A stretch of 59,096 bases of DNA. It comes from a virus. Taxonomy: Duplodnaviria > Caudoviricetes. The stretch's first letter is position 1. Each line of letters begins with the position of its first letter. Under the pieces are notes generated by a model. It worked only from the letters and a program-made list of their open reading frames with translations, made no database searches and was not told the DNA's origin. Where the stretch lies: IMG/VR virus record IMGVR_UViG_3300017782_000016, positions 1 through 59,096 of that record. The stretch is one strand, 5' to 3'. Made by a program: the position numbers and the translations under genes. This document shows, piece by piece, positions 5,222 to 56,439 of this stretch.

Positions 5222-6134
5222 ATGTAAAGAGTGCGGAGAAGAGTTTGACTCAGAAAAAGCGTTACATGCACATATAAAAAAGCATGGTTTTTATGTTGCG
5301 GATTATTATGTACAACATTATCCAAGATATAATAAACTAACTGGCGCACCAATACAATTTAAAAACAAAGATCAATACTTCAACACAGACTTTGCAAGAC
5401 GAAGTCAAATGAAGGAATGGTGCAAAACATCTGATCAAGACGAAGTAAAACAATACATACTGAAAGTATTAGCCGAAAGAGTGATTAGAAAAAAATGGGA
5501 ACACACACCCTCTTATGTTGAGCTCTACAAAGCGAAATTGCCAGACATCAGTATATACAAAAAACATTTTGGTTCTTATACCAAGGCGTCACAAGAGATA
5601 GGTTTAGAACCGCTATTTAATCAGCATTTGACGAAGAAATTCTTTGACGACTATAATGAAAAAATATTTATAGATACAAGAGAACAACAACCACTATATT
5701 TCAAAAACAGCGAATCTTTAAAATTAGCTTTCGGTGATTATACATTATCTGGAGATAAATTTACAAATACGTTTGTAGATAGAAAAAGCGCGACAGATTT
5801 TATAGGGACTTTCGGTAACGGATTCAAAAGATTCCAAAGAGAAATGCAGAGATGTGTGGAAGTGGATTGTTATATGTATATTGTTGTAGAAAAAAGCATT
5901 AAGGCAATATATAAAGATTATTTTCCTGGTAAAAGGTTATCAACCTTGAATTGGGCTTTTTCCAACATGGTCAAGCTTCAACATCAGTTTGCTGGAAACT
6001 GTCAATTCATATTTACCGAGAATAGAACGCAGAGCGAAATAATTATACCTAAGTTATTGGCATTGGGTAAAGAGCTTTGGGAAACTGACATGCAATATTA
6101 CATAGAAGAAGAAAATGTCTTGGGAGACAGGTAA
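5208..6134 (+). CDS. C2H2 zinc finger + ERCC4/XPF-type nuclease domain protein
   Basis: YKCKECG...LHAHIKKH; IDTREQQP...GDY...VDRKS..DF ERCC4 motifs; likely start ATG 5208/5211 rather than 5160. Confidence 0.8.
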   Translation: MMSYKCKECGEEFDSEKALHAHIKKHGFYVADYYVQHYPRYNKLTGAPIQFKNKDQYFNTDFARRSQMKEWCKTSDQDEVKQYILKVLAERVIRKKWEHTPSYVELYKAKLPDISIYKKHFGSYTKASQEIGLEPLFNQHLTKKFFDDYNEKIFIDTREQQPLYFKNSESLKLAFGDYTLSGDKFTNTFVDRKSATDFIGTFGNGFKRFQREMQRCVEVDCYMYIVVEKSIKAIYKDYFPGKRLSTLNWAFSNMVKLQHQFAGNCQFIFTENRTQSEIIIPKLLALGKELWETDMQYYIEEENVLGDR

Positions 6135-7968
6135 TCAAAAACCCCTTAAAAGGGAAAATGTTAATCAACAAGTTTTAGAACTTGAGGGATACCTTGAGGA
6201 CAATAAAGCTAAATATTGGTTGTACAAATTTCTTAAAGATAACATTACGTTTTCAACGCAATTACTTACTGGTATAGAATTGTTTCCGTTTCAACACATG
6301 GCAGTTAAGGCTATGATGGAGAATGATTATTTTCTAGGGGTGTGGTCGCGTGGTATGTCAAAATCCTTTTCTACGGGTATTTTTGCGCTTTTGGACGCAT
6401 CTCTGAACCAAGGGGTACATATAGGAATTATATCAAAGTCTTTTAGGCAGTCAAAAATGATCTTTAGAAAGATAGAAGATATAGCTGCAGATAAAAAAGC
6501 CGAGTTGTTTCAACAATGCATAGGCAAAGTGACCAAGTCAAATGATGAGTGGTCTATGCAAATAGGTAAAAGCCGTATTACAGCTTTGCCTTTAGGTGAC
6601 GGTGAAAAACTTCGTGGTTTCCGTTTCCAAAGAATTATTATTGACGAGTTATTGCTCATGCCAGAGAAAATTTATAATGAAGTTATTATGCCGTTCTTGG
6701 CTGTTGTTGAAAACCCAACAGAAAGACAAAAGATTAAAGATGCTGAAGATGAAATGATAAAGTTAGGTAAAATGACAGAAGAAGAAAGAACTGAGTGGCC
6801 AAGTAATAAAATGATAGGACTTTCATCTGCGTCTTACAAGTTTGAGTATTTATATAAGCTATATCAAGCATATGAGAATATGATATTTAATCCTGGAGCA
6901 AAAAACCAAGGTAGAAGATGTATTATGCAGTTTTCTTATGATGCGGCACCTAAAGCTTTGTATGATGAAAACTTAATTAGCCAAGCTAGGGGTTCTATGA
7001 GTCAGTCTCAAATTGATCGAGAGTTTAATGCTATATTTACTGATGATAGCGCAGGTTACTTTAAAATTAGTAAGATGGCCGATTGCACGATTGTGGATGG
7101 AGAATCTCCCTGTGTTGAAGTAGCAGGCGATCCAGATGCAGAATATATCATGGCGTTTGACCCATCGTGGTCCGAATCTGAAACATCTGATGATTTTGCT
7201 ATACAAGTCCTTAAATTAATGCCTCAAGAAAAGAAAGCTGTTGTGGTGCACAGTTATGCTTTACCAGGAACAAATCTAAAGAAGCACATAATATATTTCA
7301 AATACATATTAGAACACTTCAATATTATCATGATTGTAGGGGACTACAATGGTGGTGTACAATTTTTAAACTCAGCAAATGAAAGTGACATATTTAAACG
7401 AGCTAACTTACATATTGGCTGTTTTGATGCGGATTTTATAAACCCACAGAACTATGTATCAGATTTAAAAGAAGCCAGAAGACAATATAATGTTTCTAGT
7501 CGTGTGATATGTAATTTACGTAAACCAACATCTCAATGGATCAGAAACGGAAACGAAATGTTACAAACTTCTTTTGATAGAAGAAAATTATACTTTGCAG
7601 CCACAGCCATGGATGATAACTATTCGTTACAGAAATCCAAAAAAATACCTATCAAGGATTTAAAGTTTTCTAAATACGAAGACGAAAAGAATGTTGGCGC
7701 AAAAATGATAGAGTTTATAGAGCATCAAAAAGATATGCTAGACTTAACAAAAGCAGAATGTGCGCTTATACAGGTTACAACCTCCGTAGGAGGCACACAA
7801 AACTTTGACTTACCACCTAATTTAAAAAGACAAAAGGGAGCAGATAGACCTAGAAAGGACTCTTATTCTGCTTTAGTGCTTGGAAACTGGGGCATGAACA
7901 TATATTACGACATGATGGACATACCTTTAGACAATAATATTGGCTTTACTCCAATGTTTATTAATTAA
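6115..7968 (+). CDS. terL: Terminase large subunit
   Basis: LFPFQ Q-motif, SRGMSKS Walker A, IIIDE Walker B, AFDPS nuclease Asp, KDSYSAL C-terminal motif; upstream of portal. Confidence 0.93.
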   Translation: MSWETGNQKPLKRENVNQQVLELEGYLEDNKAKYWLYKFLKDNITFSTQLLTGIELFPFQHMAVKAMMENDYFLGVWSRGMSKSFSTGIFALLDASLNQGVHIGIISKSFRQSKMIFRKIEDIAADKKAELFQQCIGKVTKSNDEWSMQIGKSRITALPLGDGEKLRGFRFQRIIIDELLLMPEKIYNEVIMPFLAVVENPTERQKIKDAEDEMIKLGKMTEEERTEWPSNKMIGLSSASYKFEYLYKLYQAYENMIFNPGAKNQGRRCIMQFSYDAAPKALYDENLISQARGSMSQSQIDREFNAIFTDDSAGYFKISKMADCTIVDGESPCVEVAGDPDAEYIMAFDPSWSESETSDDFAIQVLKLMPQEKKAVVVHSYALPGTNLKKHIIYFKYILEHFNIIMIVGDYNGGVQFLNSANESDIFKRANLHIGCFDADFINPQNYVSDLKEARRQYNVSSRVICNLRKPTSQWIRNGNEMLQTSFDRRKLYFAATAMDDNYSLQKSKKIPIKDLKFSKYEDEKNVGAKMIEFIEHQKDMLDLTKAECALIQVTTSVGGTQNFDLPPNLKRQKGADRPRKDSYSALVLGNWGMNIYYDMMDIPLDNNIGFTPMFIN

Positions 7969-7974
7969 AGTTAT

Positions 7975-7998
7975 CAAAGTTACTTTAACTTTGTGTAA
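7975..7998 (+). promoter_or_regulatory. Inverted repeat CAAAGTTA-CTT-TAACTTTG abutting GTGTAA promoter motif
   Basis: Perfect 8-bp arms 7975-7982/7986-7993; GTGTAA 7993-7998, 23 nt before portal ATG. Confidence 0.6.
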
Positions 7999-8021
7999 AG
8001 AACTTTATAATACATATTGAT

Positions 8022-9968
8022 ATGCCAAGAAAATATACAAAAAAATCAGATTATTGGAATAAATTCAACCAACCACAACAAGTTGTTTCAGAGGCTTCGG
8101 TAAACGTAGAGCCTGCTAGTTTAGGAGCAGCTTATCATGTTTCAGAAGCTTCATACGGTCGAGCTGGTGCAGCAAACGCAACAAGTCAAAGATCTAGCGC
8201 TAGAATCAATAGATCCGCAGTAACTCCCGCACTTAATAAATATAGTCAAATTCGAGGTGGATTGTTACCTTTTGAATTAACAACAGATGGTGTTAATGTT
8301 AGGGACGCTATAGAGCTTTGCCAAAAAGCTTATGCCAATGTTCCGATTTTTAGAAATACTATAGATATGATGTCCGAGTTTGCTAATACGGATATATATC
8401 TAGAGGGAGGTAACGAAAGTTCCAGAAACTTCTTTGATAAGTTATTTACGAGAATTAAATTATGGGATTTGAAAGACCAGTATTTCAGAGAGTATTATAG
8501 AAGTGGCAATATCTTTTTATACAGAATAGATGGTAAATTTAATTTAGAAGATTTTAAAAAGTTCTCTAGAAGTGTCACGGAAGAGCCTGGAGAGAACAAA
8601 TTTCCACTAAAGTATATTGTTTTAAATCCGTTTGAGATTGTAGCAAAACGAAGCACTGTGTTTAATACCTCTGACGGAGCTTATGCTAAAATACTTTCTG
8701 AGTTTGATTTAGAAAGATTAGCAAACCCTAAAAATGACTATGATCAAGCTATATATGATGCATTAGATCCAGAAGTCAAAAAGCAAATTAAAGATGGAGC
8801 ATATTTTAAGGATGGATTAAAAATTAATCTAAAGAACGACAGATTGGCATATTCCTTCTATAAAAAACAAGATTATGAGCCATTTGCTATACCTTTTGGA
8901 TTTCCAGTATTAGAAGATATTAATGCTAAAATGGAAATGAAGAAGATGGACCAAGCAATCATGAGAACCGTAGAAAATGTGATACTTATGATTACAATGG
9001 GTACTGAACCCGAAAAAGGTGGTATCAATCATCACAATGTCAAAGCAATGCAATCTCTGTTTGCAAATGAATCAGTAGGTCGTGTATTAGTATCTGATTA
9101 TACTACAAAAGCTGATTTCATTATTCCAGATATCAATAAGGTTGTTGGCCCAGGTAAATACGAAGTAATTAACAAAGATATCAAGGAAGGTCTTCAAAAC
9201 ATCATACTTAATGAAGATAAGTACAATGGTGCACAAATCAAAGCTAGAGTTTTCTTGGATAGATTAAAAGAAGCTAGAGAAGCTTTCATTAACGATTTTC
9301 TACAACCAGAAATAAGAAGGGTGGCAAAAGATTTAGGTTTTAGATCTTACCCAACAGTTAAATTTAAAGATATAGATTTAAGGGACGAAGTACAACTGAT
9401 GAGAGTGGCAACTAGACTTATGGAGCTAGGCATTCTTACAGCTGAACAAGGTATGGATATTATTCATACAGGTCGATTCCCAGAATCACAAGAATTAGAA
9501 CAAGCGCAAGATAAGTTTGTTGAACAGCGTAAGAAAGGGCATTACAACCCGATTGTTGGTGGTATACCGATGATAGAAGACGATGCAATTGACGCTCCTA
9601 AACAGAATGTACCTGGAGTTCCAGGACGACCTGTAACAAAACCACAAAACAGAATATCAAGAGAAGCAATACAAGCTACAGTGTATGAAATTGAAGCTTT
9701 GCACTCTTTAGCATCAGAAGAAATGTTAAAGAAAATTAACAAGAAAAAGCTTAATAAAAACCAAACTTCAATGATCAATAAATTGTGCGAATCTGTTGTG
9801 TGTAGCACTGCAAAAGAAAATTGGACAAATTTAGCTATTTCTTGTGTAAATGATTTTACTAACATTGAGAAACTAAGCATTTTAAACGAAGTTTATGATG
9901 TTTCAGATTCACACCAATTAGAAATTTATCCATCAGCAATTTTATACCATTCAAATGAACAAAAATAA
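8022..9968 (+). CDS. Portal protein
   Basis: Position after TerL; size; YANVPIFRNTIDMM, YYRSGNIFLY, PFAIPFGFPVL portal-like segments. Confidence 0.85.
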   Translation: MPRKYTKKSDYWNKFNQPQQVVSEASVNVEPASLGAAYHVSEASYGRAGAANATSQRSSARINRSAVTPALNKYSQIRGGLLPFELTTDGVNVRDAIELCQKAYANVPIFRNTIDMMSEFANTDIYLEGGNESSRNFFDKLFTRIKLWDLKDQYFREYYRSGNIFLYRIDGKFNLEDFKKFSRSVTEEPGENKFPLKYIVLNPFEIVAKRSTVFNTSDGAYAKILSEFDLERLANPKNDYDQAIYDALDPEVKKQIKDGAYFKDGLKINLKNDRLAYSFYKKQDYEPFAIPFGFPVLEDINAKMEMKKMDQAIMRTVENVILMITMGTEPEKGGINHHNVKAMQSLFANESVGRVLVSDYTTKADFIIPDINKVVGPGKYEVINKDIKEGLQNIILNEDKYNGAQIKARVFLDRLKEAREAFINDFLQPEIRRVAKDLGFRSYPTVKFKDIDLRDEVQLMRVATRLMELGILTAEQGMDIIHTGRFPESQELEQAQDKFVEQRKKGHYNPIVGGIPMIEDDAIDAPKQNVPGVPGRPVTKPQNRISREAIQATVYEIEALHSLASEEMLKKINKKKLNKNQTSMINKLCESVVCSTAKENWTNLAISCVNDFTNIEKLSILNEVYDVSDSHQLEIYPSAILYHSNEQK

Positions 9969-10710
9969 AAACGAACTAATCGCAAATATTGACCGTAAAA
10001 ATGGCAATATAGAAATAGCTCTCGCCAACAAATATAGCGAAGCAGAAGCACCAGTGCGTGAAACTTTCCTAGCTGCGTGTGCTATGAAAGATACATACGC
10101 TGTAGACACATCCACAATGGATGACGAACAAACGGTCTCATCATGTGCATCAGCATACGACAATTCAGTTAGACCAATGATAGCAAAAATTCAAGCTAAT
10201 GTAGAAACTTTCTTAGCAAGCTTAGATAAACCACTTATGGCAATCGAAGATTATGCGAAAGCAATCGAAAATTACGCTATTGAAGATTATGCGCAAGAAA
10301 CATTTCTAGCTAATCAAGAAACCTTTTTGGCAAACCAAGAAACTTTCTTAGCAAACCAGGAAACATTTTTAGCTCGATTCCAACCGCTAATGGCTAAATT
10401 TACAAATTCATTTATGGCTGGACTAACTGATCGTCAGAAAAAGAATTTACCTCCAGCTTTACGCAAGGCAATTGTTAAGAAGATGGAATCAGAAGGAAAA
10501 ATCACCCCAGAAGAATCAAAAGCTATGGATCCTTTACTTGCTAATATGGAAACATTCTTAGCAAAAGAAAGAGCTAAAGCTCAAGAAACTTTTTTAGCAA
10601 ACGACCCTCTTTTAGCAGAAGATCAAGATATGTTATCTAAAGATGATGTTAAAAAAGATGTAGTTGCACCTCAAGACGATATCAAAGTTATAGAAAAACC
10701 TAAAAGTTAA
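9955..10710 (+). CDS. Repeat-rich head-module protein (ETFLA cassettes), putative prohead core/internal polyprotein
   Basis: Between portal and protease; eight ETFLA, three IE(D/N)YA and several P(L/M)(M/L/I)A units. Confidence 0.6.
   Translation: MNKNKNELIANIDRKNGNIEIALANKYSEAEAPVRETFLAACAMKDTYAVDTSTMDDEQTVSSCASAYDNSVRPMIAKIQANVETFLASLDKPLMAIEDYAKAIENYAIEDYAQETFLANQETFLANQETFLANQETFLARFQPLMAKFTNSFMAGLTDRQKKNLPPALRKAIVKKMESEGKITPEESKAMDPLLANMETFLAKERAKAQETFLANDPLLAEDQDMLSKDDVKKDVVAPQDDIKVIEKPKS
10294..10374 (+). repeat. Four tandem 21-bp units encoding QETFLA(N)
   Basis: caagaaacatttctagctaat/caagaaacctttttggcaaac/caagaaactttcttagcaaac/caggaaacatttttagct; differences are synonymous. Confidence 0.95.
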
Positions 10711-12272
10711 TGTCAAAATACAACTACACAGCTAGTTTTGATTTTGAAATTACTGCTGGTACTAAAATTGCTGACTTTAATTTATCGGAAGCTAACCTTC
10801 AAAATCTAGAATCTTTAATACCTAAACAAGTCGATCTGAAAAGAAATTCTGACTTGTTAGGTGTTGCGTTCAATGCTGCAGTGGTTAACGAGTTTAACAA
10901 AAATGGAGATGGAATGTGCACAAAAACCGCGATTGATTGTGTGCAACAATTTGTTCATAAGCCAACTAACATCGAACATAATAAAAAGAAAATAGTTGGT
11001 CATATAGTTAATGCTGGATTTAGTGATTATTCCGATAGCACTATTCTAGTTAACGTCGATGAGGATGAAAAGGATCCATTCAATATAGCTCTAGGAGCTG
11101 TGGTTTATAAAACCGTTGATAAGGACTTCTTTGATACGATAAGCAGAAGTGCTCAAAAAGCAAGTAATTTACATAAGGCTGTTTCTGCTAGTTGGGAAGT
11201 TGGGTTTAGTGATTATCAAATTGCTGTAGGAAGTAAAAACCTAAGAGATGCTGAAATCATTACTGATAAGGCGCAAATAGCCAAGATAAAACCTATGCTA
11301 AAAGGCTTTGGTGGCAAAGGAAGATTGGACGATGGAACACCAATTTTCCGTTTAATTTGTGGTACTGTATATCCACTTGGTATTGGTTATACGATGAAAC
11401 CAGCCGCTAATGTAAAAGGTGTAATTGCTGATGAAGAAGGGCTTGAAAATATCGTAAAAGAAAAAGAACAAAAAACAGAAGCAGAGAAAGTAATAGAAAT
11501 AAATACAAAACAAAGCGAACAACTAGAAAAAGTTGCAGCGAAAATTTCACAAAGTTTAAAAAATACTGTAAACAATAACAAAATTATGGACTTAGAAAAC
11601 CTATTAACAGAACTCAAGAGCGATCTTCAAGAGAAGAAATTTTCTCAAGAAGCTATTGCAGGCATGACATCAACATTTGCTGATGCCATTAAAACCAAAG
11701 ATGAAGAGTACAAAGCTTCTCTTGAGACTGCAGAAAATGAGAAGGCGGAAATCGCATCTGCGAATGAAGAACTCAAGAATTCTGTAGAATCAATTAAAGA
11801 GGAACTAGCTACTGCTCAAGAACGCATTGCTGAGTTTGAAAAAGCGCAAGCTGCTGTAGCGGCAGAAGCTACTTTCAATGCTCGCATGGAAGAAATTGAT
11901 TCTATCTACGATTTAGAAGAAAGTGATGCAACTTTCATTGCTGAAAAAATTAAAGGACTTGATTCATCAGAAGAGGCATATGCTTCTTTCAAATCAGAAC
12001 TTGAAGTATTTTGGTCATCTAAAAACAAAGAAGCTAAAGCTAAGATCGAGCAAGAAATTAAAGCTCGTGTCGAAGAAGAAGTTTCTGCTAGATTGAAAAA
12101 TGAGGATTACTATGCTGTAGAGGCTTCAGAAGATGTCAAAGTAGAAGATGCTTTAGACAGCGCAGAAGCAACAACAACAGAAATTCCAAACAATAACGAA
12201 GCTCAAGCTTCATCAACAACTTTAAAAGATAGATTCGCCGCTGCTTTCAGCCGTGAAAATATCACATCATAA
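10710..12272 (+). CDS. Prohead maturation protease fused to C-terminal scaffold
   Basis: NKNGD, KPTNIEH...IVGHI, VSASWEV protease-like motifs; acidic coiled-coil C-terminal half; upstream of capsid genes. Confidence 0.8.
   Translation: MSKYNYTASFDFEITAGTKIADFNLSEANLQNLESLIPKQVDLKRNSDLLGVAFNAAVVNEFNKNGDGMCTKTAIDCVQQFVHKPTNIEHNKKKIVGHIVNAGFSDYSDSTILVNVDEDEKDPFNIALGAVVYKTVDKDFFDTISRSAQKASNLHKAVSASWEVGFSDYQIAVGSKNLRDAEIITDKAQIAKIKPMLKGFGGKGRLDDGTPIFRLICGTVYPLGIGYTMKPAANVKGVIADEEGLENIVKEKEQKTEAEKVIEINTKQSEQLEKVAAKISQSLKNTVNNNKIMDLENLLTELKSDLQEKKFSQEAIAGMTSTFADAIKTKDEEYKASLETAENEKAEIASANEELKNSVESIKEELATAQERIAEFEKAQAAVAAEATFNARMEEIDSIYDLEESDATFIAEKIKGLDSSEEAYASFKSELEVFWSSKNKEAKAKIEQEIKARVEEEVSARLKNEDYYAVEASEDVKVEDALDSAEATTTEIPNNNEAQASSTTLKDRFAAAFSRENITS
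11543..11572 (+). promoter_or_regulatory. Internal bipartite promoter AATTTCACA-N13-ACTGTAAA
   Basis: Same two boxes and spacing as upstream of major tail gene (16826-16855, minus strand); in-frame ATG at 11586. Confidence 0.7.
11586..12272 (+). CDS. Nested in-frame scaffold protein (MDLENLLTELK...)
   Basis: In-frame ATG directly after the internal promoter motif, at the boundary of the coiled-coil region; analogous to lambda Nu3 inside C. Confidence 0.6.
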   Translation: MDLENLLTELKSDLQEKKFSQEAIAGMTSTFADAIKTKDEEYKASLETAENEKAEIASANEELKNSVESIKEELATAQERIAEFEKAQAAVAAEATFNARMEEIDSIYDLEESDATFIAEKIKGLDSSEEAYASFKSELEVFWSSKNKEAKAKIEQEIKARVEEEVSARLKNEDYYAVEASEDVKVEDALDSAEATTTEIPNNNEAQASSTTLKDRFAAAFSRENITS

Positions 12273-12291
12273 ATTTTAACACTTTAATATT

Positions 12292-12978
12292 ATGTCACTA
12301 AGATTATTACCATTCAGACAATATGACGAAAATGACGTCATAAATCTGTTTCGTTTAGGTGACGGTTTAGCAAATGCTCAAATCGACACTGTAGGAAACG
12401 GAGACAACGGGGTGTTTGTCAAAATCGCAACAGGAGATTTCAATCTCGAAACTGTCACATACGGAGCAGATTCTTACCTTGGTAAGACAGATTATCCTTT
12501 TGTCGCTGGCGACCAATATCCTTCAAATCCATTAAGTGTCATCCCTGCTACTAAGAATGATCGCCCATTAGGCCTCACTCTTCAACAAACAGCTAAAGCG
12601 GATGAAAATGGAGAAAAACTATTATATAACGTAACTAAAAAAGAAGAAGCTCAAGCCGTTCTTCCTGGTCAAACTGTTCCTGTTGCAACAAAGGGTATCT
12701 TTACTCTTAGCACAAACGCATTTGACAATCCAAACGGTTTAGAAGGATTCTATGCAGTTGGAACAGGTATTGCTATCGGCGCAACAGACGGTAAAGTAAG
12801 TGGTTCAGCCTTAACGGGTTCATCATTAACAAGCTACTCTAGTAAAAACTTCTCTGAGCACACAGTGTTCGGTACAGTTATTGGTACTGGAAGCCGCCAA
12901 GGTGCATCAAACAGCACAGCATCTACTATCGCAGATCAATTCTCTGGAAACTATATCGTTGTAAAAATCGATTGCTAA
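12292..12978 (+). CDS. Putative capsid decoration/cement protein
   Basis: Between scaffold and major capsid; Gly-rich beta composition. Confidence 0.6.
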   Translation: MSLRLLPFRQYDENDVINLFRLGDGLANAQIDTVGNGDNGVFVKIATGDFNLETVTYGADSYLGKTDYPFVAGDQYPSNPLSVIPATKNDRPLGLTLQQTAKADENGEKLLYNVTKKEEAQAVLPGQTVPVATKGIFTLSTNAFDNPNGLEGFYAVGTGIAIGATDGKVSGSALTGSSLTSYSSKNFSEHTVFGTVIGTGSRQGASNSTASTIADQFSGNYIVVKIDC

Positions 12979-12999
12979 TAGAAAGGAAATATTACAAAA

Positions 13000-14169
13000 A
13001 TGAAAATTACATTAAAAAATACTCCAGAACAAGTTGAGCTTATCAAAGCTATGGCTTCTCGCAACCGCAGTGTTGCTTACGAAGCTCAAACAGCTTTAGC
13101 TGAGTTCATCGGACCAGTGTTAGCAGAAGTCGTAAACCAAGCTCCAGCTTTGTCAAACCTTTTTACAACACTTCAGTACAATTCAGAGGACAATCCTTCA
13201 ATCCCATTAGATCTCTATTTTGATATCACAGATGAGGATTACGTACAGGTATTCTCTCAGTCACGTGCTGGTGGTCTTGCTACTTCAGAAGTTCTTCCAA
13301 CATCATCTGAGTTGAAAGTTGCTACATATTCACTTGATTCAGCTGTAAGCTTCGACAGACGCTACGCTGCTAAATCTCGCATGGATGTAGTTGCTAAAAC
13401 AATGACTCGTGTTGCACAAGAAATTCTTTTAAAACAAAATACAATTTCAGCAAATGTTATTATGCGTGCATTAGCATCTGCAGCAAAGAGCAATGGTCTT
13501 CAATTAGAAGAGTCACATGCTGACAAACGTTTTGTTCTTGCAGACTTAAATCGTATGTTAACTCGTGCAAAAAGAGTTAACACATCATTCGTTGGTGGTA
13601 CTCCAGACGCTCGTCAAGGAAAAGGTATTACAGATATTATCGTTTCCCCAGAGATCGTTGAAGAGTTAAGAGCTATTGCTTATAACCCAATTAGTACAAA
13701 AGAAGCTCCTATTAGTGCAGCTCTTAAAACTTCTAATAATGCTCCAGACTTCATCGCTCAACAAGCATACAGCGCAGCTGGTGCTCCTAGCTTCTATGGT
13801 ATCAACATCATAGAGTTAAGCGAAATGGGTGGTTCTGGACTTGGTGGTTCATCACGCCGCTTTAACGACATCTTCGTTAAAGAGTATGGTGCTCTTGATG
13901 GTACTAACAATATCGCTAAACCTCAAGGTGGAAGTGCTGATGCAGAATTCGCAGCTGCTGACGACTTAGTACTTGGTATTGACCGCACTCGTGAGTCATT
14001 ACTACGTCCTGTAGCAGTCGACGCTGAGAATGGCGCTGAGTTTAACCTTATCGCTGATGATCAATACAGCATCCGTCAAAACAAGATCGGTTACTTCGGT
14101 TCTCTCGAAGAAGGTCGTATTGTTGTTGACAATCGTGCTTTGATTGGTACAGCAGTTAAGGGTGCATAA
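13000..14169 (+). CDS. Major capsid protein
   Basis: 389 aa, end of head operon, highly biased codon use, AAGGA RBS, followed by strong terminator; TDIIVSPE, FYGINIIE HK97-fold-like segments. Confidence 0.85.
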   Translation: MKITLKNTPEQVELIKAMASRNRSVAYEAQTALAEFIGPVLAEVVNQAPALSNLFTTLQYNSEDNPSIPLDLYFDITDEDYVQVFSQSRAGGLATSEVLPTSSELKVATYSLDSAVSFDRRYAAKSRMDVVAKTMTRVAQEILLKQNTISANVIMRALASAAKSNGLQLEESHADKRFVLADLNRMLTRAKRVNTSFVGGTPDARQGKGITDIIVSPEIVEELRAIAYNPISTKEAPISAALKTSNNAPDFIAQQAYSAAGAPSFYGINIIELSEMGGSGLGGSSRRFNDIFVKEYGALDGTNNIAKPQGGSADAEFAAADDLVLGIDRTRESLLRPVAVDAENGAEFNLIADDQYSIRQNKIGYFGSLEEGRIVVDNRALIGTAVKGA

Positions 14170-14191
14170 ACATTCTTAAAACCTTTAAATT

Positions 14192-14222
14192 GGGTCACTC
14201 TTCGGAGTGGCCCTTTTTTTTT
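14192..14222 (+). terminator. Rho-independent terminator
   Basis: GGGTCACTC-TTCG-GAGTGGCCC hairpin (C(UUCG)G loop) followed by T9. Confidence 0.92.
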
Positions 14223-14229
14223 AGAAAAA

Positions 14230-14235
14230 GTGTAA
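14230..14235 (+). promoter_or_regulatory. GTGTAA putative late promoter
   Basis: Immediately after terminator, 18 nt before ATG 14254. Confidence 0.7.
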
Positions 14236-14253
14236 ATTAATTTATAATATATT

Positions 14254-14874
14254 ATGGAAGAAGACAAATCCCTACACGAATTAAAAGAAGAAACGATCGA
14301 AGATATGGCTACAGCTATCGAAAATGATGAAGTAGCGATACCTTTAGAAGCTAATGGCAAAGAAGAAGAAGAAGAAGAAGAAGAGGAAAATACTCCAGAT
14401 TTAGGCGATTTAGAGTATGCTGATGGTAAGGTTAGAGATGAATTAGATCTAATAGAGGAAGAAGAAAAAATCTATGGAACAGATCTATTAAGTCCATTTA
14501 AAACCGCCGATATAAGAGTTCTAAAAAGAAAATTAGAAACAATGTCTATGGAGAAAATGCAAGATATAGCAGACAAAGTAGCTGCAAGACATTACTCATC
14601 ATCTGAAGATCAAAAGCAAGAAATAATAGATGCATTTAGAAATTGGTCGTCGACAAACGGGTCTTTTCAAACAGATGCCACAATAAAAGCTGAAAAAGGT
14701 GCAAGATCTGATGCATTTGAAGATGCTGAAAGTGTAAACAAATTAGAGGAAAAGCTAAAATCTAAAACACTGTCAGACCTTCAAGCTACAGCAGCGAGAC
14801 TAGGGTTCAATCCTGGCTTTGATAGAGAAAAGCTTATTACTGTAATTAAGCAAGAATATCGAAGACAATCATGA
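14254..14874 (+). CDS. Acidic hypothetical protein with two short helical repeats (Rho-N/HeH-like)
   Basis: LETMSMEKMQDIADKV and LKSKTLSDLQATAARLG...REKLI; poly-Glu tract. Confidence 0.55.
   Translation: MEEDKSLHELKEETIEDMATAIENDEVAIPLEANGKEEEEEEEEENTPDLGDLEYADGKVRDELDLIEEEEKIYGTDLLSPFKTADIRVLKRKLETMSMEKMQDIADKVAARHYSSSEDQKQEIIDAFRNWSSTNGSFQTDATIKAEKGARSDAFEDAESVNKLEEKLKSKTLSDLQATAARLGFNPGFDREKLITVIKQEYRRQS
14362..14382 (+). repeat. (GAA)7 microsatellite within poly-Glu tract
   Basis: Direct reading. Confidence 0.9.
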
Positions 14875-15332
14875 ACATAATTGACCTAGCGAACGAAGTA
14901 TATCACAACGAGTTTGATTCCACTGGAGTTTCACCCACAACTATATCTGGTTGGTTCGCTAATAACTTAGGCACGCTTAATACGTACATATACACAAGCT
15001 TCTCTGGAGCCGATGGTGCAATCTCTAATTTTGGCCTAGAAGAGGCTGATATCTATAAAGAGATGTACATGTATCACCACTACACAAAACAAGCTAGAAA
15101 CACGCTTAGAGGCATCGCTACGGACACAAATGGAAACATATTAAGTGTGCGTGACGGGGACAACAGCATTACCTTCGTAAATAAGAACGAAGTAACTAAA
15201 GTTTATAAAAGTTTAGCCAATGATTCTTACGACAAAATGTTAAGAATGATACAGAGCTATAATAGTTATAATGCCTCTCCGAGACAAGTTGGTGGCGTAG
15301 AAAGCTTAGTGAGCATAAGTGGCACTTATTAA
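14871..15332 (+). CDS. Putative head-tail adaptor/connector
   Basis: Size, position after capsid, ILSVRDGDNSITF beta hairpin typical of adaptors. Confidence 0.55.
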   Translation: MNIIDLANEVYHNEFDSTGVSPTTISGWFANNLGTLNTYIYTSFSGADGAISNFGLEEADIYKEMYMYHHYTKQARNTLRGIATDTNGNILSVRDGDNSITFVNKNEVTKVYKSLANDSYDKMLRMIQSYNSYNASPRQVGGVESLVSISGTY

Positions 15333-15368
15333 TATTTAAAATACGAAACACTGATTATGTGAGTATAC

Positions 15369-15395
15369 AAAAAAACCCGCCTTTCGGCGGGTTTT
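15369..15395. terminator. Bidirectional rho-independent terminator between convergent genes
   Basis: A7-CCCGCC-TTTC-GGCGGG-TTTT. Confidence 0.9.
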
Positions 15396-15415
15396 GTGTT
15401 TTGTAAATTTGATTA

Positions 15416-16810
15416 CTAGTTTGCTCTGACGAAGTTAGATCCGAACACTCTCTTTGTATCATCTGGATGACCATGTTGGCCAGAGAAGAAAATGTTATTG
15501 TTGGTATCATCTGGACCACCGATTGTAACAGAGAATGTCAAATCGACTGTTTTGTTAGGTCCGATACTTGAACTAACTGATTCTGATTCTATTTTAGCAT
15601 TCTTTAGTGTGTACTCAACTTGTTTAGCACCTGCTGTATTAGAGAATGAGAATGATAATTGATCAATGAAATCATCGTTTGCAATAATGTCGTGCAAAGC
15701 TTGTTGTTTAGCAGAATTAACAACAGCACTAACTGATAGTGTTGGAGTAATTGGGAAATCTGCCACACGAGCGAAAGCGAATGTTGAACCAAGTTTTTCA
15801 ATTGGTGTTCTAGATAAAGGAACACTTAATGAAATACTTTGAACGTGACCAGCGCTTGAATCACTTGCATCAACGTTAAAGAATGATTTTCCATTGGTTA
15901 GTGTCAATGTCATGTCACCTGGTTTTAAAGCTGTTGTAAGCGCAGTTTGACCTACACCAGTAGCTTCTGAAGGCCCTTCTAGAACGATTCCAGATTTCAT
16001 AACTGATAACTGATTTCCGTCAACAACGTTAACACCTACACCACTAACTGCACCAGATGCACCGATAAAGTTAGTATCTTCTGGATCAACAGCAAGCATT
16101 TTCACTTGTTCTTGTCTTTTTGTTTCTCCATCAGAACCTGTTAATAAACCTGCATCTCTAGGATGTCCACCGACACCAAAAGATAATACTTTAGGTCCAA
16201 AACTTGCTTGGTGATGATTTTTTTCTGCTGCTGCAGAGGCACCTTCGATGTCTCCACCGTGAGCTCCAAGTCCTGTCACACCAACAACTCCTGTTGTAGA
16301 ATTAGCATTAAGACCTTCAAGAGAAACTGTAACAGTTGGGAAATCTCCAACTGAAGCATCTACAGTATAATCTGATAGATAACAATTTCCTAGTCCAATA
16401 ACATTGTTGTCAAAATCTTGAGTAGTTCTTGCAACGTTAGCGTCAACACCTTCTGGTGTTGTTAACATATAAAGATTAATTCCACTAGTTGCCTGCTCTG
16501 ATGTTGCAGAAATCTGATTTGAAATAAATCCTGTAGCGAGAGAACCAGAGGTAAACGAAAATCCTAGAGCTGACTCATTGTAACCATCTCCAAGCAAATA
16601 ACTTAAATCAACTGACACAGTTGGTGTCTCTAGGATGGTTGAGTCAATTCTGGCAAGTTGACCAAACTGGTTCACGTCGGTTCTATTAACGTTAAAGGAG
16701 TAATTAGCAGATTGAACTCGTCTTAATTGCTGGTGTTCATCGATACCAGTGGAACGAACTGATTTACTCGCGTATAACGCATCTGATTGATAAATGATTC
16801 TATTAGCCAT
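15416..16810 (-). CDS. Probable major tail tube protein
   Basis: Last gene of neck block, own promoter and terminator; RVQSANYSF...QFG / HVQSISLSVPLSRTPIEKLGS duplication. Confidence 0.7.
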   Translation of the reverse strand: MANRIIYQSDALYASKSVRSTGIDEHQQLRRVQSANYSFNVNRTDVNQFGQLARIDSTILETPTVSVDLSYLLGDGYNESALGFSFTSGSLATGFISNQISATSEQATSGINLYMLTTPEGVDANVARTTQDFDNNVIGLGNCYLSDYTVDASVGDFPTVTVSLEGLNANSTTGVVGVTGLGAHGGDIEGASAAAEKNHHQASFGPKVLSFGVGGHPRDAGLLTGSDGETKRQEQVKMLAVDPEDTNFIGASGAVSGVGVNVVDGNQLSVMKSGIVLEGPSEATGVGQTALTTALKPGDMTLTLTNGKSFFNVDASDSSAGHVQSISLSVPLSRTPIEKLGSTFAFARVADFPITPTLSVSAVVNSAKQQALHDIIANDDFIDQLSFSFSNTAGAKQVEYTLKNAKIESESVSSSIGPNKTVDLTFSVTIGGPDDTNNNIFFSGQHGHPDDTKRVFGSNFVRAN

Positions 16811-16825
16811 AATATTTTAATATTC

Positions 16826-16855
16826 TTTACAGTTAAACTTTATAAATGTGAAATT
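16826..16855 (-). promoter_or_regulatory. Bipartite promoter AATTTCACA-N13-ACTGTAAA
   Basis: Identical boxes and spacing to 11543-11572. Confidence 0.7.
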
Positions 16856-18086
16856 AAGCACGAGGAAATCTGTTAATCGATACATCAAAATCTATAAAAC
16901 CAACTTTTACACTATCTGGTAGAGAATTTTCCGTTCTTTCAGAAAGTTTAGAGGTAATTACATCCTCTATGTAATACTCTCCATTTTTTAAGTTGGTGGA
17001 TGTAGTATTGTAACTATAAAGTCCATCTTTAACGTCGCCTAATTCAGTAATTGGATGACCTGTAAAAGGTAGATGATTAAAGGTTTTGTAACGAGTATCT
17101 GAGAAGATAGATAACGCTCCATCAAGCTGATATTGATTTTCTGCCATTACCACAGCTTTGATAGAAGTAACCGTTTTATCTTCGCCACCAAAAGCAAAAC
17201 CTTCGTTTCTCATAGACTCTGAATTAATAAAAATAGCAGGTAATATTTTATCGTACGGCTTTACCCCAGAAAGTGACTTTTCATATCTACTATTTAGTTC
17301 GAAAGCGCTGTTTAAAATTAAATCTTCTTCTGTATCATTTGTTAAATATATATTAAAATCTTTAACTGCAAAAGTGCCAGTGATATCCGCATCAGCTAAT
17401 AAAGAACCGCCAGTTTCTAATATTCTTCCATTTTCAAAATCCATAACAAACCCAGAAGATCCACTAACCAAAAAATCTGAGAACACTGGACCAGATCCTA
17501 CATTAGCAAGAGCGTTTTGCCTTTGCCAACCCGTAACAGTCCAAGGATAAGCGAAGGGAGTTTGTGACTCTCCTATACCAGTTGTTGTGGCACGCCAAGC
17601 TGCTCTATTTATAGGAGCTCCAGCTCTAATTTCCCATAAACCAGAAGTTTCTGGCTTACTAACTGTGCCTTGATTTAAGGTAATTCTGTGATTAGCGACT
17701 GTATCGCTATTAAATATACGTCTACCATTTGAGTTTAAAACACCAACGTTGATGGTGTAGGTTGAATCAAAACTATCACTAGACCCAACCAAAGCAGCAC
17801 CAACACCTTGTAATTTAAAACCTGTTATAGCTGAATTATTAGCGGCTGTTTGACTACGACCAGTCCCCATAAACTCTGTTGGAATTATAGCGCCAGGTAC
17901 AGAAGAATCAGTTACCCACTGTTTATAGGAACTAGCAAATGCGTTATAACTAGAAGGTAATCTATCATCTTTATGATAGTATAATTTACCTGTTTGATTC
18001 GAAAAGGCAGAACCTTTGGTTAATAAATGATTGTCAAACCAAAGCATAAAGCTAGTCATTAATTCATGTTGAAATTGTGGTCTCAT
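16854..18086 (-). CDS. Putative tail terminator/neck protein with inserted beta domain
   Basis: PAIFI..E....GFAFGG and GFIDFDV segments; position before tail tube. Confidence 0.55.
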   Translation of the reverse strand: MRPQFQHELMTSFMLWFDNHLLTKGSAFSNQTGKLYYHKDDRLPSSYNAFASSYKQWVTDSSVPGAIIPTEFMGTGRSQTAANNSAITGFKLQGVGAALVGSSDSFDSTYTINVGVLNSNGRRIFNSDTVANHRITLNQGTVSKPETSGLWEIRAGAPINRAAWRATTTGIGESQTPFAYPWTVTGWQRQNALANVGSGPVFSDFLVSGSSGFVMDFENGRILETGGSLLADADITGTFAVKDFNIYLTNDTEEDLILNSAFELNSRYEKSLSGVKPYDKILPAIFINSESMRNEGFAFGGEDKTVTSIKAVVMAENQYQLDGALSIFSDTRYKTFNHLPFTGHPITELGDVKDGLYSYNTTSTNLKNGEYYIEDVITSKLSERTENSLPDSVKVGFIDFDVSINRFPRA

Positions 18087-18661
18087 AGTTGTATGTTTTC
18101 AAACTCCTTTTTGTATCTTTTGAGAAAGTCTGATATATATTTAGTATTTGCAAATTTTACCTTTCTTACACGTTTTTCTACTTGGATACCCAAACCAGAT
18201 CTACTAGAATTAGAAGGTTTTTTAATGTAGTATCCTAGTCCAGATAAGCCAGTTTCTATAGATCTAGCCCAACTTCTGCCAGGCATATAAGGTAAAGGTG
18301 TCACTTCAAAAATTTCTTTTGGCGTAGGTAAAATAACGGAAAATACAATTTTTTGACCTACGGCTCTACCTAAGTCTAAATTAGTTTTTTGTAATAGTTC
18401 TATGATGGGTTGTAATGGATCGGTACCCTGTTCGAAGCCTATAAAAGAAAAAAGATTTGTAATACCATTTAATGTCCCGCTTATATTTTCGGCTTCTACT
18501 CCACCTTTAATTTCTAACGAAACTGGGTGGTTTAAAAAATCTGCAATCATTTCATTTTTCTTTTTTTGAAAGCTGGATTTTACTATTTTCCTAGTTTGTT
18601 GTAAAGCTATAGTTGGTATTTGTCTCCTTAGAGATTTTTGAATTTCTAAATTTAAAGCCAT
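18083..18661 (-). CDS. Putative neck/tail completion protein
   Basis: Basic 192-aa protein in neck block; overlapping stop/start with neighbours. Confidence 0.5.
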   Translation of the reverse strand: MALNLEIQKSLRRQIPTIALQQTRKIVKSSFQKKKNEMIADFLNHPVSLEIKGGVEAENISGTLNGITNLFSFIGFEQGTDPLQPIIELLQKTNLDLGRAVGQKIVFSVILPTPKEIFEVTPLPYMPGRSWARSIETGLSGLGYYIKKPSNSSRSGLGIQVEKRVRKVKFANTKYISDFLKRYKKEFENIQL

Positions 18662-19119
18662 TATTCTTCCATTGGTTTGAGGTAGAAGTGATAATATTGT
18701 GGGCCAAATATACCAGTGGGATTTCCTTTACTATCTATTGTGTATTTTCTACCTTCAAATTCACATCTTGTAGCATCTTTAAGTAATTCAAAACCAGCGT
18801 TATCTACAGTAATTCTAACCTCTCCATCCATTAATTTAAAGTCTAATTGACTACCCACATTACCATCTACAAATCCTTGTTCTTTTGCATCGATATATTT
18901 AATTCTAGCTAGGATAGTTGTAGATGAAACGGTTTTAGTAACTGTTTTTTCTCCGCCCCCACTTCTCCCATATATGCCGTTAAACTCAGCACTAGCAGCT
19001 ATAGAGACTGTTTGCCCTTCCTTATATACAGTTATATTTCTAGCGAATGTTTGGTGGATATCATCTATGATAGATTTGATAGTATTCTTCTGGGATTCTG
19101 ATATGAGTGGAGTTGCCAT
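18661..19119 (-). CDS. Putative head-closure (stopper) protein
   Basis: 152 aa; CEFEGRKYTI...YYHFYL typical stopper-like C-terminus. Confidence 0.55.
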   Translation of the reverse strand: MATPLISESQKNTIKSIIDDIHQTFARNITVYKEGQTVSIAASAEFNGIYGRSGGGEKTVTKTVSSTTILARIKYIDAKEQGFVDGNVGSQLDFKLMDGEVRITVDNAGFELLKDATRCEFEGRKYTIDSKGNPTGIFGPQYYHFYLKPMEE

Positions 19120-19127
19120 ATTACTTT

Positions 19128-19146
19128 TTACACTTTTTATGTGTAA
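19128..19146. promoter_or_regulatory. Back-to-back divergent GTGTAA promoters
   Basis: TTACAC (19128-19133) TTTTTAT GTGTAA (19141-19146) between divergent genes. Confidence 0.75.
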
Positions 19147-19165
19147 ATAAACAGAGGAATAAGGT

Positions 19166-19465
19166 ATGATAGCTCAAGATTTTTTAAATGATCGGTCTCA
19201 TCATCATATAAGGTTTTTATTTAAATCTTATTTAATGCTGTTAGAAGACTTAAAGAAAGAACACGATATGCGTTTTCAGAAGCTATACGACATACTACCC
19301 GAAGACCAGCACGATCTAATTAAGATAAGTGATTACTTTGACGAAGAATATTACAATAATTACAGAAAAAAAGTATTAGATATTGGAAATTCTGTTTTGC
19401 GAGATTATAATAGTGAACTAGAGAACTTAGTAGTAGAATTTAGATTTAAAAATAATGGACAATAA
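19166..19465 (+). CDS. Hypothetical protein
   Basis: ORF with GAGG RBS and upstream GTGTAA; overlaps next gene. Confidence 0.7.
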   Translation: MIAQDFLNDRSHHHIRFLFKSYLMLLEDLKKEHDMRFQKLYDILPEDQHDLIKISDYFDEEYYNNYRKKVLDIGNSVLRDYNSELENLVVEFRFKNNGQ

Positions 19466-20183
19466 TAAAAATATATATCAATTTCAAGTAAACCGCGAAA
19501 TTATCGAAAAAGTTGAAACGACAAAAGAGGGCAAAGATGGTGAAGAGATTGTCACTACAAAAAACAAGAAGACTAAAAAACCAGTAACAATTGTTTTAAA
19601 AAAGCCAACCAGAAGAATGGTGGATGAAGCAGAGGAGTATTTTGCTATTGAGTTAAGTAAAAATGTAAAAAAGGGTATTGTTACAAAAGCTATGTTGGTT
19701 AAGAAATACGCTGACACAGGAGGCGCCTTAACCGAGGAAGAAAGTAAGGACATGATTCGTGCCGTACAAAAAAGCAACGAATTAACAAACAAGATACAAA
19801 TGATGGTGGCTACAAAAGCCAGCAAAGAGGAAATAGAACCCTTAGAGAAAGAATTATTTGAAGTTCGTAAAAATCTTGTAGATTTGGAAAGTTCTTTACA
19901 GGGTGTGTATAATAATACTGCAGATGCTCGAGCAGAAAGATCAACAATTGTATGGTATCTTTTAAATGTAACCAAAATTCTTAATGAACTTGGTGACGAA
20001 TTAGATTATTTTGAGGGTATATTATTAGAAGATAAACTTGACAATATGTATGATAAGGATGAAAGTGGAGATTTTTTTGATCAAGAAGTTTTGAATAAAG
20101 TTATGAGAATCATATCCTATTGGCATTATACTGGAGACACATCTAAAGAAAAAATAGATGAGTTTATCAAAGATGCAGGATGA
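19455..20183 (+). CDS. Putative tail assembly chaperone
   Basis: IVLKKPTRR motif, helical, upstream of tape measure. Confidence 0.5.
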   Translation: MDNNKNIYQFQVNREIIEKVETTKEGKDGEEIVTTKNKKTKKPVTIVLKKPTRRMVDEAEEYFAIELSKNVKKGIVTKAMLVKKYADTGGALTEEESKDMIRAVQKSNELTNKIQMMVATKASKEEIEPLEKELFEVRKNLVDLESSLQGVYNNTADARAERSTIVWYLLNVTKILNELGDELDYFEGILLEDKLDNMYDKDESGDFFDQEVLNKVMRIISYWHYTGDTSKEKIDEFIKDAG

Positions 20184-21153: not shown

Positions 21154-21176
21154 GTGTAATTATCCTATATAGGATA
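21154..21176 (+). promoter_or_regulatory. GTGTAA promoter plus 16-bp palindrome TATCCTATATAGGATA covering RBS/start
   Basis: GTGTAA 21154-21159; perfect palindrome 21161-21176. Confidence 0.6.
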
Positions 21177-35492: not shown

Positions 35493-35511
35493 AAATTTAA
35501 ATATTTTTTTT

Positions 35512-35551
35512 AAAAAAAATCCCCCCTATGTTTTTTACACATAAGAGGGAT
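35512..35551 (-). terminator. Rho-independent terminator after hsp20 with GTGTAA at the stem top/loop
   Basis: Minus strand ATCCCTCTTATG-TGTAAAAAA-CATAGGGGGGAT then T-run. Confidence 0.75.
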
Positions 35552-56433: not shown

Positions 56434-56439
56434 TTAAAG

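Follow-up and report, generated by a model that had tools for sequence, protein, structure and literature searches.

The window analysed here is the whole of the IMG/VR virus record IMGVR_UViG_3300017782_000016 (59,096 bases; estimated completeness 37%), an A/T-rich sequence with a G+C content of 28–40%. This report concerns a two-box element within it, AATTTCACA-N13-ACTGTAAA, which is 30 bases long and occurs as an exact match at 11543–11572 on the plus strand (AATTTCACAAAGTTTAAAAAATACTGTAAA) and at 16826–16855 on the minus strand (AATTTCACATTTATAAAGTTTAACTGTAAA), the two copies being mutually inverted. Copy 1 lies inside the 520-amino-acid (aa) open reading frame (ORF) at 10710–12272 (+), which is predicted to encode a protease–scaffold-like fusion with a domain at residues ~15–230, a variable linker at ~240–277 and a coiled-coil C-terminus. 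Within this copy, box 1 occupies 11543–11551 (codons K-I-S-Q) and box 2 occupies 11565–11572 (codons T-V-N), separated by an A/T-rich spacer of 13 nucleotides (nt). The end of the copy is followed by an A-rich leader, again of 13 nt, and by an in-frame ATG at 11586 (codon 293; leader and ATG together, 11573–11588, +), a putative start for a nested, scaffold-only protein. The ORF that begins there (11586–12272, +; 228 aa) starts with MDLENLL and covers the coiled-coil, scaffold-like C-terminal part of the fusion.

Copy 2 is intergenic. It occupies the 43-nt gap between the 410-aa ORF (16854–18086, −) and the 464-aa ORF of the probable major tail tube gene (15416–16810, −), and ends 15 nt ahead of the ATG at 16810. 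The stop codon of the 410-aa gene reaches into box 1 of this copy and forms the start of the box, and upstream of the tube gene homologues TAA or TGA immediately precedes TTTCACA. Since the stop codon of the upstream gene supplies the first letters, the true box 1 is (A)TTTCACA.

The boxes, their 13-nt spacing, the coordinates and the strands had been given in an original prediction made from the sequence of the window, and the exact-match scan confirmed all of them. No third match was detected in the window with up to three mismatches allowed; at the same tolerance, 100 shuffled windows gave a mean of 0.84 matches, with at least two matches in 23 of the 100. Identical 9+N13+8 word pairs numbered 11 in the window, compared with 3.9 ± 2.9 (maximum 13) in 40 Markov-1 simulations. 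The repeated gapped word is not beyond chance on the window alone, and it is conservation that makes the element real.

Conservation and synonymous-site constraint

Relatives were collected by a scan of IMG/VR with the 520-aa protein, which gave 237 confirmed relatives, and the best 80 of these 237 were retained; they show 59–76% protein identity and a conserved gene order. A second scan, seeded by the most distant first-round relative, added L139 (46% identity) and L140 and L141 (both 36%). All relatives are uncultured and are metagenomic fragments. Whole-record searches covered the window and four larger relatives (85–113 kb), five records in total, each at most 83% complete.

A scan of the genome and its relatives had been proposed as a check on the original prediction. 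With the relaxed core TTTCACA-N(12–16)-TGTAAA, 110 matches were obtained in 81 sequences (80 relatives and the window), every one at either of the two homologous places, including two matches in loci with a split BLAST alignment that belong to the same two sites, and the spacing was N = 15 in 110 of 110. The core was present in 77/77 loci covering the gene site and in 28/28 loci covering the tube gene start. In the five whole records (59–113 kb), the exact core occurred exactly twice per record (5/5), one-mismatch matches beyond the exact pairs numbered 1, 3 and 0, and a reversed-pattern control gave no match. Two copies per genome is a minimum, because the relatives are fragmentary and no whole record is more than 83% complete. 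For the 'promoter class' that had been proposed, 'class' is a generous term, with exactly two members in each of five records.

The tube gene upstreams read (A/G)ATTTCACA-N13-(A)ACTGTAAA in all 28 loci. Among 23–25 distinct relatives, the spacer of the intergenic copy differs in sequence and is constant in length, with a consensus below 60% at the spacer positions and of at least 90% in the boxes. Box 2 was ACTGTAAA in 45 of 49 distinct coding contexts and in 24 of 25 distinct intergenic contexts. Its distance to the ATG was 13 nt in 45 of the 47 distinct coding contexts with an in-frame ATG in range, and 14–15 nt in 23 of the 25 intergenic contexts. In the tube upstreams of L014, L039, L041/L043/L070 and L072, box 1 is present in tandem, twice or three times with a 7-nt period (TTTCACA / CTTCACA), and the 13-nt distance to box 2 is kept solely by the copy nearest the gene.

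The more distant relatives extend this pattern. L139 carries ATTTCACA-N13-AATGTAAA in the gene and ATTTCATA-N13-ACTGTAAA ahead of the tube gene, with distances from box 2 to the ATG of 22 and 21 nt, respectively, and with leaders that are alike and purine-rich. L140 and L141 carry ATTTCCCT-N13-GATGTAAA in the gene, and an in-frame ATG is found 27 nt further on, so that an in-frame start downstream of the boxes is likewise present at both 46% and 36% identity. The box variants found in relatives are ATTTCATA, ATTTCCCT, AATGTAAA and GTTGTAAA, each box varying independently of the other. Over the full sampled range the separation of the boxes never changes, whereas the distance to the start codon is near-fixed within a clade and differs between clades.

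For copy 1, 77 aligned sequences have the variable linker and, after it, an island, K-I-S-Q-x-[LI]-K-N-T-V-N-N-x-x-I-M, whose methionine, the in-frame ATG at codon 293, is invariant (77/77). Among 40 distinct versions of this region, the ATT TCA CAA and GTA codons are identical in all 40 and the ACT codon is kept in 37 (the exceptions being two GCT and one ATT); the neighbouring Leu, Val and Ala codons vary freely, as does the variable linker just upstream. Synonymous-site constraint at 11543–11572, which had been suggested as a further check, was evident: across 69 distinct coding sequences, synonymous diversity averaged 0.028 over codons 278–291 and 0.39 over the whole gene, and no other 14-codon window of the gene had so low a value. 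Of the conserved-residue codons, 7/10 in the island never vary synonymously, compared with 8/285 elsewhere (Fisher p = 2e-8; Mann–Whitney p = 3e-7), and the mean synonymous diversity at the 285 conserved codons outside the island was 0.42. In the conserved N-terminal domain the value was ~0.5, indicating that the freezing of the island is not plain low divergence or codon bias. Low synonymous diversity was also observed at the leader codons 288–291.

The conserved peptide KISQ.LKNTVN reflects a constraint on DNA or RNA and not a protein motif. Two other sources of such a constraint were considered and rejected. An overlapping gene is not in keeping with the extent of the constraint, since the antisense ORF at 11387–11617 is much longer than the 42 nt concerned. 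A programmed −1 frameshift at the spacer heptamer T-TTA-AAA is not tenable, as the heptamer is lost in relatives with ATA and the intergenic copy is non-coding. Based on the synonymous-site constraint together with the conservation of the intergenic copy around a free spacer, we conclude that the element is a genuine cis signal under selection.

Proteins shorter than the fusion are also present in databases. A search for shorter homologues gave 215 matches, and 8 of the 18 examined begin at the internal Met. Database proteins that start there, with MD(L/I)E, measure 228–232 aa, but their contigs are short.

Genes and transcription units around the two copies

The head genes upstream of copy 1 begin with TerL (6115–7968, +; PHROG 2, E 6e-25; Pfam Terminase_6N), followed on the same strand by a 648-aa gene of portal size, whose portal identity is assumed from its size and position, by a 251-aa gene taken from the ORF list and by the 520-aa gene. 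Downstream of copy 1 lie a 228-aa cement/decoration-like gene (12292–12978, +) and a 389-aa major-capsid-like gene (13000–14169, +), the last before a terminator and preceded by a Shine–Dalgarno-like AAAGGAAA. The order TerL, 648-aa, 251-aa, 520-aa, 228-aa and 389-aa is conserved in relatives. Two small plus-strand genes follow the 389-aa gene. The minus-strand block around copy 2 comprises, in transcription order, the 152-, 192-, 410- and 464-aa genes (19119 down to 15416), and beyond it lie three small plus-strand genes and then the gene for a tape measure protein of 2085 aa (21176–27433, +; Pfam PhageMin_Tail, E 4e-26). With a tape measure of this length the tail would be very long and much tube protein would be needed, consistent with a dedicated signal for the tube gene. 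In L053 (14535–17407) and L140 (12467–14251), the tail-proximal module (p152, p192, p410 and tube) is on the strand of the head genes, opposite to its orientation in the window and most relatives.

The predicted structure of the 520-aa protein (predicted local distance difference test, pLDDT, 54.9) shows a mixed alpha/beta domain at residues ~60–228, an unconfident linker at 228–299 and long helices at 313–399 and 404–463. An exhaustive structural aligner placed the T4 prohead protease gp21 (5jbl_A) at the top of 48,161 chains, with a Z score of 8.0 that is borderline by the calibration of the aligner and falls among commonly seen best scores (root-mean-square deviation 4.1; 137 of 165 residues; model residues 15–230), and ranks 2–50 were coiled coils matched on the C-terminal helix. 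Foldseek gave no match to this model at E ≤ 0.001. The protein had no Pfam, PHROG or PDB sequence match, with PDB profiles at chance level only; the lambda C and Mu I Pfam families were not matched, and a Pfam scan of 25 aligned family members gave weak and inconsistent matches only. Given the position of the gene, the gp21 match lends moderate support to a protease–scaffold fusion, in which we infer a scaffold function for the C-terminus. Of the original label of a protease gene with a scaffold, the long coiled-coil C-terminus is supported and the protease-like domain has a borderline match.

The identities of the two genes downstream of copy 1 are leads only. The nearest Atlas clusters of the 389-aa protein are Mu GpT/major capsid clusters (PF25209 on 92% of one; score 0.97), and those of the 228-aa protein carry PF22758 Phage_cement on 15–41% of members (score 0.96–0.97). 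The description of these genes as decoration and capsid is supported to this extent by likeness to such clusters. In the PHROG/Pfam scan near the element, 13 of 15 proteins were without a match, apart from TerL and three weak matches.

The 464-aa protein gave a model of low confidence (pLDDT 52.7; predicted template modelling score 0.58) with tandem tube domains, for which Foldseek ranked the T5 tube protein pb6 first (7qg9_A, E 3.7e-7; 9iny_A, E 4.4e-7), followed by DT57C, SH-Ab15497, P74-26 and then Hcp. The tube matches of T5, DT57C and P74-26 had E values of 3.7e-7 to 1.5e-5, a probability of 1.00, TM scores of 0.36–0.42 and sequence identity of 7–12%. A PDB sequence-profile search with the same protein gave one chance-level match (E 0.49) and no tube protein. 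We accept it by its predicted fold as the major tail tube protein, in agreement with the earlier assignment of a major tail gene downstream of copy 2.

Two sigma-like proteins are encoded in the window. The first, of 189 aa (37353–37922, −), matched PHROG 351, RNA polymerase sigma factor (E 3.4e-10), and Pfam Sigma70_r2 below the cut-off (E 7e-4), and is present in three of the four larger relatives. The second, of 223 aa (3516–4187, +), lies upstream of the packaging and head genes; it matched Pfam Sigma70_r2 with E 8.7e-5 and 22.7 bits, below the 24-bit cut-off, had no PHROG match and is present in all four larger relatives at 66–79% identity. A tRNA scan of the window detected no genes. The window also contains a sugar-modification block at 47787–57564 (three glycosyltransferases, a methyltransferase, two DegT-family aminotransferases, an epimerase/dehydratase and a GDP-mannose 4,6-dehydratase) and a further glycosyltransferase at 35925–37010, a sugar-modification cargo that is large for a phage.

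The phage group is an uncultured marine siphophage clade, described as abundant. Against 50,697 phage records, neither blastn of 10100–18000 nor tblastn of the 389-aa capsid-like protein gave any match. TerL matched 116 of the phage records, all below 60% identity (23–29% among the matches listed), and these were distant Firmicutes phages only. Judging from these searches, the window phage appears to have no close cultured relative.

An intrinsic-terminator-like hairpin lies at 14192–14213 (+; 9-bp stem with six GC pairs, followed by the T-run TTTTTTTTT) and is also found, with its T-run, in relatives upstream of the next gene. A second hairpin, at 15372–15395 (10-bp stem with six GC pairs), scored as terminator-like on both strands and lies where the 153-aa gene and the tube gene converge. 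Each copy of the element is followed by high-copy genes and then by one of these strong terminator-like hairpins.

Box 2 also resembles a more widespread motif. GTGTAA[AT] occurs 25 times in the window, and 13 of these sites are intergenic, 14–48 nt ahead of an ATG on the same strand: 1416, 2308, 7993, 14230, 19133(−), 19141, 21154, 35540(−), 38980, 41621, 45086, 45401 and 46750. The motif stands directly after the 14213 terminator and forms a divergent pair at 19133/19141. Seven of the intergenic sites lie exactly 14–15 nt from the ATG, counted from the start of the motif, and an mRNA starting at these sites would be leaderless or nearly so. In distinct upstreams of relatives, GTGTAA was found ahead of the portal gene in 40/45, of p152 in 20/20 and of p206 in 10/16, with TATAAT 7–8 nt after it in the portal and p206 upstreams. 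Ahead of operon-internal genes it was absent from the distinct upstreams of all four genes compared (cement 0/48, capsid 0/45, p251 0/45, p192 0/19). Box 2, as had been proposed, is a one-letter variant of this apparent operon-start motif, CTGTAA differing from GTGTAA in one letter. The decoration and capsid genes, which the original prediction listed among the genes boosted, have no copy of their own, and even GTGTAA is missing from their upstreams in the counts above.

Two further regions contain related sequences. The segment 38760–38998 is a divergent control region between a minus-strand replication/nucleotide module (SSB, deoxynucleoside monophosphate kinase-like and sigma-like genes) and the ribonucleotide reductase genes; it has a TATTGACT box on either side, and on the plus side TTGACT stands 14 nt before TGTAAA, near the geometry of the element. 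Between two minus-strand genes, at 35500–35545 (−), a terminator-like hairpin followed by a T-run holds GTGTAAA in its loop.

RNA data were available as assembled contigs; of six matching runs from seawater or marine samples, four were compared over 6000–20000; such contigs cannot show starts, ends, strand or level. The contigs matched 9933–13753 and 15407–16794, and almost nothing matched 6000–9735 or the region past 17208. None of the contigs listed spans 11443–11656, and the uncovered parts carry no weight as evidence. In run X1, the word depth was 3.2–4.3 on the contigs of 9967–11443 and 17.5 on that of 11656–13026, although contig depths are no evidence of level.

The promoter reading and its alternatives

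The element is probably an internal phage-specific promoter, which would produce one message for scaffold, cement and capsid and another for the tube. In this mechanism the element would act at the DNA level, as a promoter or as the core-promoter-plus-factor site of one, with two copies per genome. Box 1 (TTTCACA) would serve as a −35-like box and box 2 (yTGTAAA) as a −10-like box, held at a rigid separation of 13 nt, and the reader would be host RNA polymerase that carries, or is aided by, a phage-encoded factor. The 189-aa and 223-aa sigma-like proteins are candidates for this factor, a link that we infer from their presence. The message from copy 1 would start a few bases before the ATG at 11586, encode the 228-aa scaffold-only protein together with the cement-like and capsid proteins, and stop at 14192–14213, and that from copy 2 would carry the tail tube gene alone and stop at 15372–15395. 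As an outcome, the high-copy proteins would be made in larger amounts than the protease fusion and the minor proteins whose genes lie further upstream in these operons. With no element copy of their own, the decoration and capsid genes would gain from the element solely through their position after copy 1.

Several observations suggest this reading. Two boxes at a rigid spacing around a spacer of free sequence are a promoter signature; box 2 is a member of a motif family placed at points where transcription has to start afresh; and the element sits ahead of high-copy genes and a terminator. The nucleotide-level selection within the gene, the confinement of the exact core to two places per record, the box spacing retained down to 36% identity, the two sigma-like candidates and the herpesvirus precedent also speak for a promoter. 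It is further supported by the lack of any predicted RNA structure or Rfam family: four folds of the transcribed strand had minimum free energies of 0 to −4.5 kcal/mol with z values of −0.64 to +2.0, from which no structure is predicted, and an Rfam search of the whole window at the gathering score gave no matches. More specifically, a dedicated promoter inside the protease–scaffold coding sequence may give rise to an abundant scaffold–cement–capsid message, and the same two-member class, with a sigma-like factor, may drive the tube gene; we put this fuller scheme forward tentatively.

A number of points weigh on the other side. The RNA-library contigs cannot show a transcription start, an RNA end or a step in depth. 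When aligned as TTCACA-17-TAAACA, the element misfits the sigma-70 consensus at the last −10 position, and a sigma-70 scan of 9500–19500 listed this combination at neither site. The predicted leader would be only ~6–8 nt long and has no Shine–Dalgarno sequence. The sigma-like proteins are linked to the element by presence only, and the protease identity of the 520-aa protein comes from one borderline structural match (Z 8.0) of a low-confidence model. Finally, within a genome the distances from box 2 to the ATG are near-equal (13 against 14–15 nt; in L139, 22 against 21 nt) and the leaders are alike, which fits equally well with an RNA-level signal that is read together with the start codon.

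Such an RNA-level signal on a long operon mRNA, whether an enhancer of translation initiation or an operator bound by a phage RNA-binding protein, is less likely but is the main alternative. It would direct ribosomes to the nested start and to that of the tube gene, and no new transcript would be needed. Main-clade copies end 13–15 nt from the ATG, and in L139 this distance shifts jointly at both sites; the region is A/U-rich and predicted to be unstructured, like initiation regions; the low synonymous diversity extends to the leader codons; and both starts are without a Shine–Dalgarno sequence, which the capsid gene possesses. Nested scaffold genes known from phages, lambda C/Nu3 and Mu I/Z among them, use internal translation starts. 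However, invariant, sequence-specific boxes located 20–43 nt ahead of a start and rigidly spaced around a free spacer are not what ribosomes usually recognise, and the distance from the boxes to the ATG varies between clades (13 to 27 nt) while that between the boxes never does. Box 2 falls in the GTGTAA family located after terminators, where a new transcript is needed, and neither a predicted RNA structure nor an Rfam match speaks for an RNA element. An RNA hairpin between the boxes (UUU(C)ACA with UGUAAA) was also considered and rejected, as the folds are weak and the changes in box 1 of L140 and L141 are uncompensated; covariation cannot be scored because the boxes are invariant.

It is considerably more doubtful that the boxes are half-sites for a DNA-binding regulator, a late activator or repressor, rather than the polymerase contact itself. 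Such a regulator would time or throttle scaffold, capsid and tube, with the core promoter elsewhere, or the element would be a roadblock or antitermination site. Read as an inverted repeat, the boxes match imperfectly (TTTCACA and the complement of TGTAAA, with one extra base), their centres lying about two helical turns apart, and just two sites per genome is what dedicated regulators would have. The late promoters of Mu ahead of head gene I and of a tail gene need the activator C, according to PMC4461284. On the other hand, the repeat is not perfectly symmetric and each box varies on its own among relatives, a lone box 2 (GTGTAA) before many genes suits a box read by polymerase better than a half-site, and a candidate protein was not identified.

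That the element has no cis function, being the product of chance with protein conservation or codon bias, or a pair of recombination sites flanking an invertible 5.3-kb segment, is scarcely credible: a 9+N13+8 word repeat is expected by chance in an A/T-rich window of 59 kb, the peptide KISQ.LKNTVN is conserved and the window copies are inverted to each other, but the synonymous freeze is confined to the island while equally conserved residues elsewhere vary (0.42), protein constraint cannot account for the intergenic copy, and 110/110 core matches fall at the two homologous places. The relatives, at 36–76% protein identity, are not near-clonal. The invertible segment was rejected separately, since in L053, where the tail module is inverted, the copies are direct repeats and both are retained, which argues against an inversion switch.

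Significance and comparison with known systems

The specificity, conservation, synonymous constraint and fixed box spacing of the element, the conserved nested ATG, the terminators and the tube fold are shown; the transcription initiation, the reading factor and the shorter protein that the promoter reading involves are all predicted. What is new is a sequence-specific two-box element inside a coding sequence, at the boundary between protease and scaffold, that is documented by synonymous-site freezing across a clade and is shared only with the tail tube gene. Virion proteins are needed in very different numbers though they are encoded in shared operons, and the element marks exactly the two points of the genome after which the putative highest-copy proteins are encoded. 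With 14 codons frozen clade-wide, it is a clean example of a regulatory signal that overlaps coding sequence, and it predicts a putative nested scaffold protein. A regulon of two members, together with two sigma-like candidates, would help in tracing the phage transcription factor that reads the element.

The sigma-70 consensus consists of TTGACA (−35) and TATAAT (−10), with key positions at the A in position 2 and the T in position 6 of the −10 hexamer. Like sigma-70 promoters, the element has two boxes, a rigid spacer length, a free spacer sequence and an orientation towards the start codon; in the window, TTCACA agrees with the −35 hexamer at 5/6 positions and is followed after 17 nt by TAAAnA. 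Unlike them, TAAACA and TAAAGA of the window lack the T at position 6. The small sigma-like protein of 189 aa may recall the small two-domain sigma factors.

Late promoters of T4 comprise a single A/T-rich −10 box of 8 bp, with no −35, and are read with a gp55-like protein, a co-activator and the sliding clamp; internal T4 late promoters yield shorter in-frame proteins. The resemblance to the window lies in a short A/T-rich box (GTGTAA[AT]; here yTGTAAA) near late starts, inside operons and after terminators, in a phage sigma-like gene, and in the N-terminally shorter protein to which an internal promoter would give rise. The sequence of the box differs, however, and the two sites of the window carry a second, upstream box. 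A literature search linking GTGTAAA or TTTCACA to phage promoters gave nothing relevant, and one on the nested scaffold arrangement found none.

In lambda C/Nu3 and Mu I/Z, the short protein is translated from an internal start on the late mRNA that also encodes the longer one; the nested C/Nu3 genes of lambda are reportedly the concern of work by Shaw and Murialdo from 1980. As in these phages, the putative scaffold of the window is encoded in frame towards the 3′ end of a protease-like gene that is flanked by the putative head genes for portal and capsid. In contrast to them, the window has a two-box element before the internal start that is duplicated before the tube gene. Mu has four activator-dependent late promoters, one before head gene I and one before a tail gene, as described in PMC4461284. 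The capsid-like and cement-like neighbours of the window may further resemble Mu-type head proteins, although these likenesses are leads only. On the tail side, the 464-aa protein is predicted to share its fold with the long tube proteins of T5 and DT57C (pb6) and of P74-26, at a sequence identity of only 7–12%.

The protease–scaffold gene of herpesviruses would be the closest functional analogue. The fold of T4 gp21, to which the N-terminal fold of the window protein shows its borderline match, is akin to herpesvirus assemblin. As in UL26/UL26.5, the protease–scaffold fusion of the window would be paired with an in-frame shorter scaffold product, and the signal and the ATG of the window lie at the domain boundary. 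The herpesvirus scaffold is transcribed as a short isoform from within the protease–scaffold gene, at a level approximately 10-fold above that of the fusion transcript, as stated in PMC11565193. The window differs in belonging to a bacterial virus and in having a prokaryotic two-box element, a predicted promoter, that is shared with the tail tube gene. It would thus offer a bacterial-virus counterpart to the herpesvirus pair of protease and scaffold transcripts. If the fuller promoter scheme is true, head stoichiometry in a tailed phage would be set in the way that herpesviruses set it, and one factor would govern the copy-number ratio of head shell to tail tube. If, in addition, the nesting is homologous to that of UL26/UL26.5, the transcriptional architecture of the capsid maturation module would predate the split between tailed phages and herpesviruses.

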